UHGV virus genome: UHGV-0315046
DNA length: 36,193 nt
Reading direction: 5' to 3' (one strand)
DNA from: a virus
Shown here: piece after piece, positions 2,710-34,427 of the stretch
How the letters are laid out: the number at the start of each line of letters is the position of its first letter
Numbering within the stretch: position 1 is the first letter of the stretch
Program-made: the position numbers and the translations under genes
Notes under the pieces: generated by a model
The model's database searches: none
What the model saw: only the letters and a program-made list of their open reading frames with translations
Told to the model about the DNA's origin: nothing

Positions 2710-3624
2710 TCAGTAGTTATGTACTGAAGGAGGTAATTCTTTATTCTTAAGTCTCATCCATGCGGAAAGATTCGTTGGTCCGTCTGGCTCATTAATATCA
2801 ATATCTCGTGTGTGGTTTATTAAAACGTCTCTCGCCATTCCTATAACATAAGAGAACTCATGACCGTAGTCGTAGCATCTGCCGGAATAGTTCGATTGAA
2901 TTTGTTTCAGCGCCGGATACAGTTCGCGGAATAATGCCTGTGAGCGGTTGGCATAATCCCATAACCATACAAGGCTGTTTGCTTCTTTTGCAGAAAGCTC
3001 GTTGGTTTTCTTCTCTTGTTTGCCGATTAACTCGCCTTCAAGCGGAACGCGAGCTGCAAGTGACAGAGCTTCGGTAAACTGCTCATCGCTGATTTCTTTG
3101 TATGAACACCCAAAATGAGATTTCAGTGACGACCACATGGTGATCATCGCCTTAGCCTGTTTTTCTTTTGGCAGAGACTGACCGCGACTCATGACGAGTT
3201 GTTTAATGGCTTCCTGCTGTTCAGTGGTGATTTTTCCCGGCAACGCCTTTTTAGCTTTCGGTGTATTTCCGTAAGACCCCGTTTTACGAATGGATGGCAA
3301 AACTTCAGCTGTCACCCATTTGCGGAATTTGTGCGGGACTGAACCTTTATTGACGGCATCACGGCAGCGCAGAACCAATGTATACATACCTGATTCGCTC
3401 ACAATGCTTAAATTCTGCTCACCACCAAGGGTGTAACTTAAAGTTACTCCCTTCTCATCGTCATCAAGTGCAGTAAGCGCCTTGCGTGAGTTAGTCAGGG
3501 TTAAAGCATCACAAACATCTTTTGCTACAAACCACGGCTCACCGCACTTGTTGATGACGCGGATTTCACTGTCGCCGAATTTGAAGATGGTGAAATCGTT
3601 TTGTGCCTTTGCTATACTTTTCAT
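2710..3624 (-). CDS. ant: Antirepressor Ant (immI region)
   Basis: 304-aa ORF with an N-terminal Bro-N/AntA-like segment ([15 protein letters not shown]), placed between arc/mnt and the tailspike as in P22 immI. Confidence 0.7.
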
Positions 3625-3686
3625 GTCAATATTTCCTAATCCGATTTGTTGATACCGAAGCCCTGACTGTTACAGCAGTTGGGGCT

Positions 3687-3878
3687 TCAACTTTTATCAG
3701 CGACTTCAACTGGAATACTCTCTAGCTTTTCATCTAACCCCTTCTCGCCATGCATGAAAATAACAATATCTGTAACGCATGAGTCACAAATTGCTTCTTC
3801 GGTATTTTTTGACACAACAAAGCCCCTGCCAGTCGTTTCTTTACTACACCCACAAAAACAACATCTGCGGTTTTTCAT
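3687..3878 (-). CDS. Small Cys-rich (zinc-ribbon-like) protein between arc and ant
   Basis: 63-aa ORF with CCFCGC...CDSC (CxxC...CxxC); its ATG overlaps the arc stop as ATGA, suggesting translational coupling. Confidence 0.45.
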   Translation of the reverse strand: MKNRRCCFCGCSKETTGRGFVVSKNTEEAICDSCVTDIVIFMHGEKGLDEKLESIPVEVADKS

Positions 3879-29552: not shown

Positions 29553-29652
29553 TCTCCGTTATTAACCATGAACAAAGAATACTACAGGTATTCAAAGCAA
29601 TCAATACTCAGGGTATTTTTAGTTTAAGTACCTTAGCTATTAGAATTAAGCT
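29553..29652. promoter_or_regulatory. OR operator / PR-PRM divergent promoter region
   Basis: Two clear 15-bp palindromic operators AATACTacaGGTATT (29578-29592) and AATACTcagGGTATT (29603-29617) between cro and cI; cI starts with almost no leader. Confidence 0.6.
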
Positions 29653-30369
29653 ATGGAAAATAAAAAATCACTGACGACAGAACAGCTCGAAGACGCTAAG
29701 CGGCTTAAGGCTTTGTATGAGTCAAAAAAGAAAGAATTGGGAATAACCCAATACTCAATCGCTGATGAACTGGGTATCACCCAAGGAGCGGTAGGGCATT
29801 ATCTTAATGGCAGAAACGCGCTAAACGTTGAGGTTGCATCTGGTTTTGCACGATTGTTGCAAGTCTCAATTGCTGATTTTAGCCAGTCAATTGCTGCCAA
29901 GGTTGCAGAACAGGCAGAAAGCCTTAAGAGCGATGCCAACGTAAGGTATGCAGGGGAATACAGAGCAGGAAAGAGGTATCCGGTGTTAAGCAGTATCCAG
30001 GCTGGCTCGTGGTGTGAAGCATGCGAACCATACACCATTAAAGACATAGATGTTTGGCTTGAGTCTGACGCGCATATTCAAGGTAATGCGTTCTGGCTTA
30101 AAGTGGAAGGTGATTCAATGACGGCACCGGTTGGGTTAAGCATTCCAGAGGGAACATTCGTTCTTTTCGATACCGGAAGGGAGGCGATCAACGGCAGCTT
30201 GGTCATAGCAAAACTTTCTGACTCTAACGAAGCAACATTCAAGAAGCTGATAATCGACGGCGGAAATAAATACCTCAAGGGACTTAATCCTGCATGGCCT
30301 CTCGTGCCAATCAATGGAAACTGCAAGATTATAGGCGTTGCAATTGAGACAAAACTAAGGCTGGTTTGA
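29653..30369 (+). CDS. cI: CI repressor (HTH N-terminal domain plus S24 LexA-like autocleavage domain)
   Basis: 238 aa; N-terminus LTTEQLEDAKRLKALYESKKKELGITQ resembles lambda CI; Ala-Gly cleavage site (SIQAGSW), catalytic Ser (EGDSMTAP) and Lys (FKKLI). Confidence 0.9.
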   Translation: MENKKSLTTEQLEDAKRLKALYESKKKELGITQYSIADELGITQGAVGHYLNGRNALNVEVASGFARLLQVSIADFSQSIAAKVAEQAESLKSDANVRYAGEYRAGKRYPVLSSIQAGSWCEACEPYTIKDIDVWLESDAHIQGNAFWLKVEGDSMTAPVGLSIPEGTFVLFDTGREAINGSLVIAKLSDSNEATFKKLIIDGGNKYLKGLNPAWPLVPINGNCKIIGVAIETKLRLV

Positions 30370-30386
30370 TCACGCAAGGGGCGATT

Positions 30387-30755
30387 ATGGTTGGAACCGC
30401 TATAGCAAGCTTTTTGGGGATGTTGGCAATCTCAACAATTTACGGCTTAGCGCATGCTTTTATTGCGAAATCTCTATCAGAAAAAATAAGCCAGGCTTGG
30501 GCGCATAGATCTGCTCGTTTCATGATTCTAGTGGTCATAGCAATACAAGGGATATCTGCATTTATCCTCTATGGATCAAGCTTATACCTGTTGTATCAAG
30601 GCGCGACATTTACGCCTTACACCAGTGATTACGGAACTCTATACGATGGTAGTGAAGACATCTCTATGGCTTGGATCGTCTTTGGTTTATCTATGGCCGT
30701 GTCTGTTGTAGCAGACATCATTAAGGTAATTCTCGTCTTAACCTTCGCTGACTAA
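30387..30755 (+). CDS. Small multi-pass membrane protein co-transcribed with cI (rexB-position moron)
   Basis: Start refined to MVGTAIASFLG... with AAGGGG upstream; about four hydrophobic helices by inspection; begins 18 bp after the cI stop and ends before OL. Confidence 0.55.
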   Translation: MVGTAIASFLGMLAISTIYGLAHAFIAKSLSEKISQAWAHRSARFMILVVIAIQGISAFILYGSSLYLLYQGATFTPYTSDYGTLYDGSEDISMAWIVFGLSMAVSVVADIIKVILVLTFAD

Positions 30756-30834
30756 CCCATAATCCCGGCAGCAATAGCTATCGGGATCCACTTCACATAT
30801 CCCGCATAAAAAGCACTGAACAAGCAGACACCGA

Positions 30835-30930
30835 AAAAATAAATATCCTTTGTATTCATTTGCTTATCATTATTTTATCAAAAATAAATACCTTGGGTAT
30901 TTACACAATAAAATACCTACAGTATTCTTT
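30835..30930. promoter_or_regulatory. OL operator / PL promoter region
   Basis: Operator palindromes with the same half-sites as OR: AATACCttgGGTATT, AATACCtacAGTATT and a degenerate AATATcctttGTATT. Confidence 0.55.
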
Positions 30931-30972
30931 AGCCATCAGCAGGACGCTGGTAGCCAAACGGAACAGATTGGC

Positions 30973-31015
30973 AGGCTCTTTAACATTGATGGGATTGTCC
31001 CGCCGAAATGCGGGA
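30973..31015 (+). promoter_or_regulatory. nutL (boxA plus boxB hairpin)
   Basis: GGCTCTTTAAC followed by TCCCGC-CGAAAT-GCGGGA, identical in boxB to the nutR copy, about 110 nt upstream of N. Confidence 0.5.
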
Positions 31016-31121
31016 ACCAAAGAGTAGTTGGCTTTGGGGTGACGTGAAGTGCAGCTGCACGACGGCAACCGGAAGATAAGCCCCGGCGCGTCACCGCCAA
31101 AGTCAATCATCGGAGGTCAAC

Positions 31122-31421
31122 ATGACAGTAGTCATTACATATCTGGCTGACGATAACGCCAGAAATCGCCGCAGAGCACGCAGACAGGCTCAACGTGAGC
31201 AGGTAATGCAAGAGCAGCGACTGGCGCGAAAAATTGCGCTAAAGCTCTCTGGTTGCGTCAGAGCAGACAAAGCAGCATCACTCGGAAGCCTTCGCTGCAA
31301 TAAGGCAGAAGAAGTCGAGCGTAAACAGAACCGTATTTACTACCGAAAGCCACGCAGTGAAATGGGTGTGACTTGTGTTGGTCGCCAGAAAATGAAATTA
31401 GGCAGCAAACCACTTATTTGA
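31122..31421 (+). CDS. N: N-type transcription antiterminator
   Basis: 99 aa; arginine-rich N-terminal motif (NARNRRRARRQAQREQ); C-terminus RIYYRKPRSEMGVTCVGRQKMKLGSKPLI resembles the lambda N C-terminus. Confidence 0.8.
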   Translation: MTVVITYLADDNARNRRRARRQAQREQVMQEQRLARKIALKLSGCVRADKAASLGSLRCNKAEEVERKQNRIYYRKPRSEMGVTCVGRQKMKLGSKPLI

Positions 31422-31429
31422 GGTGAGAT

Positions 31430-31900
31430 ATGACAAAATCATGGAGCGTACCTTTTCCTGAATCAGAAACTGAACATGATGGAATGCCTGTTTTCTGGAG
31501 ATTCCAAGCGACAGTTGAAGAAGATGGAATCAAAATATTCGCACTTCAATATATAGCTTTTCATCAGACAGAGCATTATGCATGGTTGGTTCCTGCGCAT
31601 TGGATTGTTGATTTTAAACCAGCACCAAATCAGTGGTTACAGGAATGGAAACAAAGGAGAAATAGATATGCAATTAAGAAAGTAGCAAAAAATGCAGAAA
31701 GATCTTTTGCATTCCCAACGAAGAAACTTGCCATTGAGAGTTTATTGCGCCGGAAGAAATACCATTTAATGAGAATCAAACAAGATTTTGCTGTTGTATC
31801 AACTCTTGTTGATGGGATGAAGAATATTGATACATCAACACCAGATATTGAATATAACTTTGGACACAACCAAGAAACAGAAAATTGGGTATTCTACTAG
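31430..31900 (+). CDS. Hypothetical early-left protein (moron candidate in the ral/sieB slot)
   Basis: 156 aa, starts 9 bp after N with GAGGTGAG upstream; Trp/His-rich N-terminal half, basic middle; AT-rich; followed by a terminator. Confidence 0.55.
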   Translation: MTKSWSVPFPESETEHDGMPVFWRFQATVEEDGIKIFALQYIAFHQTEHYAWLVPAHWIVDFKPAPNQWLQEWKQRRNRYAIKKVAKNAERSFAFPTKKLAIESLLRRKKYHLMRIKQDFAVVSTLVDGMKNIDTSTPDIEYNFGHNQETENWVFY

Positions 31901-31930
31901 GCCGCATAGTCGGCCTTTATTTTTGGCATA
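31899..31930 (+). terminator. Intrinsic terminator (tL1-like)
   Basis: Hairpin AGGCCG-catagt-CGGCCT followed by TTATTTTT. Confidence 0.55.
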
Positions 31931-31940
31931 AACAACAGAG

Positions 31941-32225
31941 GTGGATATGAAAGAGTTTAAGGGTACGCCTGGTAAATGGAAGTACACGGTTAGAAACGTC
32001 AACGAGATGATGACTACGTTCCATGGTGTGACGATTGGTGACACATACATTGAAGCAGCAACAAGAAATGAAAGGGAGGATGCGCTACTGATAGCAGCAG
32101 CTCCTGATTTGCTTGAAGCACTGCAAGAGCTTGTCTTCCTTTACGAGCATGACGAAGGGTGCAGAGAGTTAACCGAATACAAACGAGCCAAGGCAGCAAT
32201 CAGCAAGGCTCTGGGAGGTGAATGA
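31941..32225 (+). CDS. Small hypothetical protein, paralog A of an EFKGTPG-W family
   Basis: 94 aa; shares EFKGTPGxW, (I/T)AAAP(D/E)LLEALQ and AIxKALG with the ORF at 32892-33134. Confidence 0.55.
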   Translation: MDMKEFKGTPGKWKYTVRNVNEMMTTFHGVTIGDTYIEAATRNEREDALLIAAAPDLLEALQELVFLYEHDEGCRELTEYKRAKAAISKALGGE

Positions 32226-32434
32226 TGTGCGAGTTTTATGAAGCAGATATCAAACGCCCAGAAATGGCAAGTGATGCGACATTACGTGATTACTTCGCTG
32301 CTAAGGCTATGGCAGCAATAGTGCGCAGATGGGACGGACATTCCTTTGGCGGTGGACAGAATTCACCACAGTACAAAGAATTAGCAGATGATGCCTACTT
32401 TATTGCTGATGCCATGCTCAAAGCTCGCGAATAA
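32222..32434 (+). CDS. Hypothetical protein
   Basis: 70 aa, ATGA-coupled to the upstream ORF with GGAGGTGA upstream. Confidence 0.45.
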   Translation: MMCEFYEADIKRPEMASDATLRDYFAAKAMAAIVRRWDGHSFGGGQNSPQYKELADDAYFIADAMLKARE

Positions 32435-32527
32435 GCACTGTGTATTCATTCCAACGAGTGAATACACGGAGCAATGTCGCTCGTAACTAAACAGGAGCCG
32501 ACTTGTTCTGATTATTGGAAATCTTCT

Positions 32528-32556
32528 TTGCCCTCCAGTGTGAGGGCCTTTTTATA
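32528..32556 (+). terminator. Putative intrinsic terminator upstream of cIII
   Basis: Hairpin CCCTC-cagtgtg-GAGGG followed by CCTTTTTAT. Confidence 0.4.
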
Positions 32557-32619
32557 TGCATACCAATAACGCTTCACTCGAGGCGTTTTCGTTATGCAAT
32601 CAAATATAAGGAGTTACCC

Positions 32620-32754
32620 ATGATGCACTTTCAGCTCGCGGGTAGCGGCGTCATGTCCGCTTTCTACCCGCACGAATCTGAATTATCACGCCGAGTTAAA
32701 CAATTAATCAGAGCAGCAAAGAAACAACTGGAGGCGTTATGCACAATGAAATAG
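32620..32754 (+). CDS. cIII: CIII-like protease inhibitor
   Basis: 44 aa from the internal Met with TAAGGAG upstream; amphipathic helix ESELSRRVKQLIRAAKKQL resembles lambda CIII (ESLLERITRKLRDGWKRL). Confidence 0.55.
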   Translation: MMHFQLAGSGVMSAFYPHESELSRRVKQLIRAAKKQLEALCTMK

Positions 32755-32891: not shown

Positions 32892-33134
32892 ATGAGCGAA
32901 TTTAAAGGAACTCCCGGTCCGTGGTTTTGGGATGAAGAGGGCTTGGGAAACAAGCATCACATAGTCTTTGGAAAGGGATATCCACTTGAAATGACGAGCA
33001 AGGAAAACAAGACTCTCATTACTGCAGCGCCTGAATTACTGGAAGCTCTGCAGGCTGTAGTTAGAGTAGCAGACCGTCAAACAGATGAGTTTGATATGGC
33101 TCGTTCCGCCATCGACAAGGCACTCGGCAAGTAA
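32892..33134 (+). CDS. Small hypothetical protein, paralog B of the EFKGTPG-W family
   Basis: 80 aa; see paralog A for shared motifs. Confidence 0.55.
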
Positions 33135-33213
33135 ACCACACCAAACACCCATTACCCCTACTCGTCCGGCTATCGCAGACGGGCAGCGCACAACCAAATT
33201 TCAGGAGCCTATT

Positions 33214-33510
33214 ATGGCTGCATATCTCGTTCAAGACCGTATCGAGGCGCAGAACTGGACGCGCCATTATCAGCAAATAGCCAGAGAAGAGCGTGAATCT
33301 GAACTGGCTGATGACCTCGAAAAAGGATTGCCACAGAGCAAACTGGAATCGTTGTGCGTTGACGAGTTGCAACGTCGCGGGGCCAGCAAGAATGCCATTT
33401 CCAAAGCATTCGATGATGACGTCGAGTTTCAGGAAAGGGCCGCTGAATTTATTCGCTACATGGCAGAGACAATTGCTCGCCACCAAACAGATATTGATGA
33501 GGGACAGTAA
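33214..33510 (+). CDS. gam: Gam (RecBCD inhibitor)
   Basis: Start refined to [41 protein letters not shown] with CAGGAGCC upstream; close to lambda GamS as recalled. Confidence 0.85.
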
Positions 33511-33512
33511 CG

Positions 33513-34427
33513 ATGAGCATGAGCATTGTTGAGTTCGTTAAACAGCAAGAGCCGCTCTTTGTTGGGGCGGTTACAGACCAATCAGTCACATGGGCTAAGG
33601 AAAGCCAGTTTGCAATTCAGTATTTCCAGAAAAATGATTACCTGGCTAAAACAGCACTGGCAAATCCGACCAGCGCACAGAACGCTATCATCAACGTTGC
33701 GGCGATCGGCATCACCTTAAACCCGGCCAGCAAACTGGCTTATCTGGTTCCGCGCGACGGCATGGTTTGCCTTGATATCAGCTATATGGGATTGCTCCAT
33801 ATTGCAATGGAGTCTGGTGTTATCTCATGGGGTCAGGCAAAACTTGTTCATGCTAACGATACCTATGAGTCAAACGGGCTTGATAAAGCACCAACCCATA
33901 AATACAACGCCTTCGGTGATCGTGGTGATATCGTTGGCGTTTACTGCACAGTTAAGACGCCAGCAGGTGATTATCTAACGGAAGAGATGAGTCTGGCTGA
34001 AATTGAGGCTGTAAGGAAAACAAGCAAGGCAGCATTCAGTGATAAAGGACCATGGGTAAATCACTGGAATGAGATGGCGCGAAAGACGGTCGTAAAGCGT
34101 GCAAGCAAGTATTGGCCTAAGGCATCACGTCTTGATAGTGCTATTCACGTACTAAACGAAGAAGAAGGTGTGTGGACTGAACCAGTTATGCCGCACAAAT
34201 CAGAGGAAGATATCCGCGAAGATGAACGGAAACGCCAGCAGGAAATTATGGAAAAAGCACAACTTCTTTGTGATGAAATGGCTCAGGCAGAAAACATGGA
34301 TGATTTGAAGCGATATTTTTCAGAAGCATATCGCCTGACATCTGGAATGAAATTGCAGCAGAACGTACAAGCCATATACATAGAATGCAAAGCGAAACTG
34401 GAGGTTGCCAGTGAGCAAACTGTATGA
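33513..34427 (+). CDS. recT: RecT-family single-strand annealing recombinase
   Basis: 304 aa; motif GPWVNHWNEMARKTVVKRASKYWP resembles the conserved RecT C-terminal motif; sits at the bet position after gam. Confidence 0.75.
   Translation: MSMSIVEFVKQQEPLFVGAVTDQSVTWAKESQFAIQYFQKNDYLAKTALANPTSAQNAIINVAAIGITLNPASKLAYLVPRDGMVCLDISYMGLLHIAMESGVISWGQAKLVHANDTYESNGLDKAPTHKYNAFGDRGDIVGVYCTVKTPAGDYLTEEMSLAEIEAVRKTSKAAFSDKGPWVNHWNEMARKTVVKRASKYWPKASRLDSAIHVLNEEEGVWTEPVMPHKSEEDIREDERKRQQEIMEKAQLLCDEMAQAENMDDLKRYFSEAYRLTSGMKLQQNVQAIYIECKAKLEVASEQTV

Follow-up and report, generated by a model that had tools for sequence, protein, structure and literature searches.

An N-adjacent gene of the early-left operon in a P22-like Escherichia coli phage: an orthologue of HK97 gp45 and a candidate early binding protein

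A small gene directly following the N-like antiterminator gene was analyzed in the UHGV virus genome UHGV-0315046, a sequence of 36,193 nucleotides (nt) which will be referred to as the window. The window represents a P22-like Escherichia coli phage or prophage, with E212, Kapi1, phiv205-1 and CUS-3 as closest relatives. The gene, designated ORF156 (31430-31900, plus strand), is a non-structural accessory gene of an apparently repressor-controlled pL operon and the orthologue of HK97 gp45 and 933W p19. Together with N it may encode one of the only two proteins made in the first minutes of infection or induction without antitermination. The most likely reading of its role, although a tentative one, is that of an early, dispensable binding protein for host takeover or counter-defence.

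Coding evidence, identity and distribution

ORF156 is clearly a genuine protein-coding gene under purifying selection. Among its 37 distinct alleles, 22 polymorphic codons show synonymous changes only and 11 change the amino acid, internal stop codons do not occur, and the variable sites fall predominantly on the third codon position (24 of 33, with 6 at the first and 3 at the second position). Homologues with 54-84% identity are present in Cronobacter, Pectobacterium, Brenneria, Rosenbergiella and Symbiopectobacterium. The reading frame begins with ATG and encodes a predicted soluble protein of 156 amino acids (aa) with a molecular mass of 18.7 kDa and an isoelectric point (pI) of 8.8; with a highest Kyte-Doolittle mean over 19 residues of 0.56, no membrane segment is apparent. 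Only 8 nt separate the start of ORF156 from the stop codon of the 99-aa N-like gene. The Shine-Dalgarno sequence GAGGTGA (31420-31426, plus strand), which as read from the sequence matches the complement of the anti-Shine-Dalgarno sequence over 7 nt, overlaps the TGA stop codon of N and ends 3 nt before the ATG. Ahead of the ATG, TTATTTGAGGTGAGAT is kept in nearly all of 83 related loci, one group of 5 among them carrying GAGGTGATAT in its place. The GC content of ORF156 is 36.3% (27.6% at third codon positions) compared to 49% for the N gene and 47% for the window, and such a low value is typical of acquired accessory genes. These findings agree with an earlier note on this DNA, which had described an AT-rich gene directly after N with a strong ribosome-binding site and without a transmembrane segment.

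ORF156 matched the family profile phrog_1636 over its entire length (residues 1-156 on profile positions 1-156 of 156) with an expectation value (E) of 3.4e-111; the PHROG category of this family is unknown function. Its orthologues are HK97 gp45 (NP_037731) and the 933W protein ST933Wp19 (NP_049479). Amino-acid identity to these two and to the common E. coli alleles amounts to 97-99%, and a copy on an IMG/VR contig is 98% identical. HK97 Gp45 and the 933W protein were also recovered when a distant family member was used as the query. The DNA of ORF156 occurs in 264 phage records. Most of these belong to phages converting for Stx1 or Stx2, and carriers of the gene include 933W, Min27, P27 and many Stx1a and Stx2a phages. 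The same DNA is present in 598 of 5426 complete E. coli genomes (~11%) with up to 4 copies per genome, where it is annotated as "hypothetical protein" in every case. As a sequence, ORF156 itself is not new: it is near-identical to catalogued hypothetical genes, and the window therefore holds nothing new at this position. A Pfam scan of the protein at E up to 1 yielded no family and an NCBIfam scan no match; the PADLOC models gave only Cas1_II with E 0.019 over 45 residues, a spurious-looking hit which does not place ORF156 among the defence proteins. Thus, the view of the gene as uncharacterised, free of recognisable motifs and located in a variable accessory slot after N was confirmed. Homology to a characterised lambda early protein, which the earlier note had named as the result that would speak against it, was detected neither by sequence nor by fold searches.

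Setting in the early-left operon and predicted timing of expression

The plus strand between 29.6 and 34.4 kb constitutes the early-left arm of a lambdoid immunity region. A pL-like sigma-70 promoter (TTTACA-17-TATTCT, 30900-30928, plus strand, 9 of 12 hexamer matches) is followed by a nutL-like site, composed of GCTCTTTAACA (30975-30985, plus strand), which we take to be boxA-like from the established consensus, and of a boxB-like hairpin TCCCGC-CGAAAT-GCGGGA (30998-31015, plus strand), both likewise read by inspection of the sequence. The N-like gene (31122-31421, plus strand) matches phrog_271 (E 6e-36) and, below threshold, the Pfam N_peptide family, and its product carries the arginine-rich N-terminal motif NARNRRRARRQAQRE. 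Scanning the plus strand from pL to position 31899 revealed no terminator-like site, and no further promoter-like site was found between pL and ORF156. As there is no terminator-like site before 31899 and the ribosome-binding site overlaps the stop codon of N, ORF156 would be located on the same N-independent immediate-early transcript as N.

Two operator-like palindromes AATAC-N5-GTATT (OL; 30887-30901 and 30912-30926) overlap the -35 and -10 regions of pL, and two further ones (29578-29592 and 29603-29617) are located between cro and the gene of the cI-type repressor (29653-30369, plus strand), which contains HTH_3 and Peptidase_S24 domains. Exactly four copies of this 15-bp palindrome are present in the window compared to 0.02 expected by chance; presumably this immunity type uses them as its OR and OL operators. 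With two operators over the promoter and the other two between cro and cI, pL appears to be repressor-controlled and the gene consequently off in the lysogen. According to this layout, ORF156 would be synthesised along with N without requiring antitermination, and no synthesis would be expected in the lysogen.

The earlier note had proposed that the gene is insulated by a strong terminator and would therefore be expressed mainly under N antitermination. A GC-rich hairpin plus T-run is indeed present 3' of the gene (31899-31925, plus strand, stem-loop 31899-31916, -9.1 kcal/mol): AGGCCG-CATAGT-CGGCCT forms 6 pairs, 5 of them G-C, and followed by the tail TTATTTTTGG it qualifies as an intrinsic-terminator-like site. 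Its left arm overlaps the TAG stop codon of ORF156, and it represents the first terminator-like site downstream of pL. Nevertheless, a downstream terminator cannot gate an upstream gene, and with no such site between pL and 31899 the proposed dependence on N could not be upheld; the hairpin would gate the downstream genes and not ORF156. Insulation of the gene was not supported either, since approximately 68 of the 83 related loci, HK97 included, lack such a hairpin after the gene and only about 12 possess it. The attribute strong may be premature, as the short stem does not surpass in strength two tandem terminator-like hairpins 600 bp downstream (32530-32592, plus strand, starting at 32530 and 32568; -9.9 and -9.4 kcal/mol). 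The latter are located just upstream of cIII and are kept in HK97, where the first one is annotated as a putative terminator, which brings the terminator-like sites between N and cIII to three in total.

In lambda, the terminator tL1 lies just after N, and by analogy the hairpin at 31899 may take its place. The window resembles lambda in its repressor-controlled pL, the nutL-like site, the N-like gene and the subsequent intrinsic terminator-like hairpin, with delayed-early cIII, kil, gam and a RecT-type recombinase gene further downstream, but it differs in having an extra gene between N and the first terminator. Due to this extra gene, two N-independent proteins would be made compared to one in lambda.

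HK97 and 933W share the operon, the orientation, the ribosome-binding site and a 58-bp upstream segment of ORF156 with the window, and on its upstream side the ORF156 module starts ~58 bp before the ATG. In HK97 and 933W, N stops earlier and the 58 bp (about 2886-2943 in the comparison loci L084 and L085) are intergenic, whereas in the window the same stretch encodes the C-terminus of a different N allele, comprising its last ~19 codons (VTCVGRQKMKLGSKPLI, 31363-31421). As this tail of N is read from a stretch that is intergenic in HK97 and 933W, a mosaic joint is located inside the 3' end of N. On the downstream side, the ~68 loci without the hairpin run on after the stop codon of the gene into TACGAATAAGCACTGTGTATTCATTCC, which in the window is found ~530 bp further on, from ~32430. 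Since the stop codon of ORF156 is joined directly to this sequence in HK97 and the other loci, the window carries a cassette of ~525 bp (31901-32432, plus strand) that is absent from HK97 and most related loci. Besides the hairpin, it contains two small genes without a known function, the first encoding 94 aa (31941-32225, plus strand, phrog_1273) and the second 70 aa (32222-32434, plus strand). The hairpin is thus the first element of an inserted cassette and not a conserved companion of the gene. In phi367, the same right arm and T-run are found after ral, preceding the ORF156 orthologue. Short conserved linkers consisting of CATAAACAACAG(A) and then AATAA(A/G)CAC(T/A)G(C/T)(A/G)CTG were observed to recur at early-left module joints in many loci (31917-31945 and 32428-32445 in the window). 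They follow ral and the two-gene cassette and are found on either side of the ORF156 orthologue, which suggests recombination at boundary sequences.

Further downstream the operon continues with cIII (32620-32754, plus strand), a kil-sized reading frame, Gam (33085-33510, plus strand) and RecT (33513-34427, plus strand). The first cassette gene and a gene at 32892-33134, also of unknown function, are paralogues with 40% identity (E 9e-17) and share the motifs FKGTPG and AAP(D/E)LLEALQ. Upstream of pL, a hydrophobic reading frame of 129 aa (30366-30755, plus strand, phrog_6534 of unknown function) overlaps the cI stop codon and shows several hydrophobic segments by eye. It occupies the slot of lambda rexA/rexB and could be co-transcribed with cI in the lysogen, making it a candidate prophage-expressed membrane protein. 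No RNA family was detected by Rfam at E<=1 over 30700-32700. Elsewhere in the window, a P22-type immI region was found, with the sar antisense RNA at 3626-3692 (Rfam RF00262, 69 bits) and, abutting sar, the gene for the Ant antirepressor with Bro-N and P22_AR_C domains (2710-3624, minus strand).

Superfamily and predicted fold

A profile search of 1.84 billion representatives yielded 87 cluster representatives. Most of these superfamily proteins are 130-155 aa in length and align over residues ~19-140, and the corresponding PHROGs (phrog_1636, phrog_13631 and phrog_25384) are all of unknown function. A Pfam scan of 74 aligned members found no credible domain, yielding only four isolated chance matches. 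Fusion to a recognisable domain was not found among the 87 representatives; a 203-aa member carries only a Cys-rich N-terminal extension, and the long matches P0059 and P0082 are repetitive and spurious-looking.

An AlphaFold model obtained from 22 close homologues reached a predicted local distance difference test score (pLDDT) of 55 and was discarded in favour of a model from the 74-member alignment, which showed a pLDDT of 95.9 and a predicted template modelling score of 0.83. The increase in pLDDT was obtained by adding ~50 distant members with 18-27% identity; alignment diversity, and not the depth of close relatives, decided the quality of the model. It contains strands at residues 19-30, 33-46 and 50-55, short helices, a strand at 83-86 and a helix of 33 residues (98-130), and ORF156 is thus predicted to be a small basic alpha/beta protein with a long three-stranded antiparallel sheet. 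Profile searches of the PDB with two alignments gave a best E of 0.28, representing coiled-coil noise, and Foldseek with the model returned no match, so that the predicted fold appears to have no relative among solved structures. It recurs in early-region proteins, likewise uncharacterised, of numerous phages both temperate and virulent; the virulent ones include phages of Erwinia, Achromobacter, Delftia, Rhizobium and Cellulophaga. SH3-like barrels (PWWP, Tudor, KOW and PipX) scored below significance with 0-12% identity, which makes them a lead and not a classification; in addition, they lack an equivalent of both the long helix at the C-terminus and the conserved basic loop of ORF156.

Aromatic or aliphatic strand residues conserved across the superfamily are Y/W23, Y41 and W52, and R/K24, G33, E46 (Q in the enterobacterial clade) and T47 are conserved superfamily-wide as well. 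The same holds for a basic run comprising K75, K83, K/R84, K87, R91/92, K98, R108 and K109. The pI exceeds 8 in 67 of the 74 members, and the family median is 9.0. A conserved catalytic-looking triad or His/Asp/Cys set was not found across the superfamily. A 2H phosphoesterase of the Acb1-like type, prompted by the motifs "HQT" and "GHNxET", was considered and rejected, as H45 and H146 are unconserved and no fold match was obtained.

Position in relatives and possible function

In lambdoid phages and prophages, relatives of ORF156 are located in the early-left operon, where they share the strand of N, cIII and the recombination genes but vary in their position. In E. coli phages the gene directly follows N or ral; in the phi367 record ral is annotated upstream of the ORF156 orthologue, and phi296 carries ral under the same match. 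In Cronobacter it is found downstream of N across a gap of ~750 bp without a called gene, in Pectobacterium and Brenneria xis-int follows it directly, and in Rosenbergiella it precedes RecT/YqaJ/SSB. This variation characterises ORF156 as an early-left accessory gene and not as a partner of N. The distant superfamily members have no neighbour in common and are surrounded by small early genes or genes of DNA metabolism: they adjoin a DNA ligase gene in a T4-like contig and RecE plus a replication initiator gene in a Vibrio phage, lie near DNA methyltransferase and HNH genes in Pantoea and Pseudomonas phages, and in one case are located 3 kb from a gene with a Sequestin domain.

Since Lys/Arg and aromatic residues are conserved whereas a catalytic set is not, we suggest that ORF156 acts by binding and not by catalysis. 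Candidates for its partner are nucleic acids, nucleotide-like ligands and acidic host proteins, and the role of ORF156 would be a dispensable one in host takeover or counter-defence early in lytic growth. Ocr, Gam and the nucleotide sponges Tad1 and Acb2 would be analogous, being of comparable size, expressed early and scattered over the accessory slots of many phages, although no solved member of these proteins was matched by ORF156 in sequence or fold. A role specific to lysogeny or in prophage defence is made less likely by the occurrence of the superfamily in virulent phages. Extending this proposal to the whole superfamily is more doubtful: its members might be phage-wide early binding proteins neutralising a host defence or nucleic-acid-processing factor, which in Stx phages, HK97 and the phage studied here would be deployed together with N, prior to antitermination.

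An unlikely but serious rival is a basic DNA-binding accessory protein that assists recombination, replication or integration/excision instead of acting on host defences. It has to be taken seriously because the gene recurs beside xis-int, RecT, RecE and ligase genes. The position directly upstream of xis-int in the Pectobacterium and Brenneria prophages and upstream of RecT/YqaJ/SSB in Rosenbergiella, the ligase, RecE and replication initiator genes adjoining distant members, the methyltransferase and HNH genes in Pantoea and Pseudomonas phages and the conserved Lys/Arg cluster are all consistent with such a helper. Nevertheless, these contexts have no partner gene in common, and between ORF156 and the recombination module most E. 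coli loci carry cIII, kil and further genes. Early regions are rich in DNA-metabolism genes anyway, which makes adjacency a weak argument, and no resemblance to a known DNA-binding fold was detected. Co-transcription and close coupling with N, observed here and in most E. coli loci, would fit a modulator of transcription elongation or termination, in which an SH3/Tudor/KOW-like beta subdomain contacts RNA polymerase, a Nus factor or Rho. Such a function appears improbable, as the variable placement and the occurrence without N argue against an N cofactor: the gene can lie at a great distance from N, as in the loci where it precedes xis-int, in phi367 it comes after ral and not after N, and it is present in virulent phages with no N-type antiterminator annotated nearby in the loci examined.

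The earlier note had suggested anti-restriction or exclusion, both of which have to be regarded as conjecture. The variable slot after N is occupied by ral in lambda, which encodes a protein of ~66 aa, and the immediate expression on entry expected from the layout would suit a Ral-type restriction alleviation or other specific anti-restriction function. However, no homology to Ral was found: the PHROG matches are all of unknown function, and the Pfam search at E up to 1 was empty, the presence of the Ral model in that Pfam copy being unchecked. ORF156 coexists with ral in phi367 and probably in phi296 and is thus no substitute for it, and it is basic, unlike the acidic DNA mimics Ocr and ArdA. 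Coexistence with ral and basic character argue against a Ral- or Ocr-type role, and as a fold match to solved anti-restriction proteins is also missing, we consider this function very improbable. Least probable of all is a superinfection exclusion or defence gene expressed from the prophage, comparable to a sieB-like moron. The low GC content is moron-like, and neighbouring slots in relatives hold exclusion genes such as the gp17-like gene in PA28. On the other hand, the gene is located inside the cI-repressed pL operon with no promoter-like site between pL and its start, and from sequence alone neither the membrane segments (19-residue hydropathy <=0.56) nor the own lysogen promoter of a SieB-type gene was found. 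OL/pL control together with the lack of a membrane segment argues against a sieB-like exclusion function, as do the occurrence of family members in virulent phages and a sole PADLOC match to a spurious-looking Cas1 fragment.

Several points weigh against an early host-takeover or counter-defence binder encoded by ORF156. Searches by sequence and by fold linked it to no characterised protein of the anti-defence, regulatory or DNA-binding type, and the basic patch is read from conservation, with surface exposure assumed. Despite the terminator scans, Rho-dependent termination between pL and ORF156 is possible. About 10 of the 83 loci have a terminator-plus-boundary element, and not N, ahead of the gene, so that the predicted immediate-early timing would apply to this phage and most of its relatives but cannot be extended to the whole family. 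Finally, no publication naming the gene, the family identifier, the accessions or peptide strings was found. Nor was ORF156 found in the supplementary data of two screens of phage accessory genes or of one Vibrio anti-defence study, the phage collection of which includes a phage with a family member.

The orthologues of ORF156 are common in E. coli and in the clinically important Stx phages, yet the gene has no assigned function. If the layout has been read correctly, synthesis prior to antitermination would suit a factor that acts at once on the host. A confident structural model without a solved relative, together with the spread of the family over temperate and virulent phages, makes ORF156 a cheap and well-defined candidate for anti-defence and host-takeover screens.
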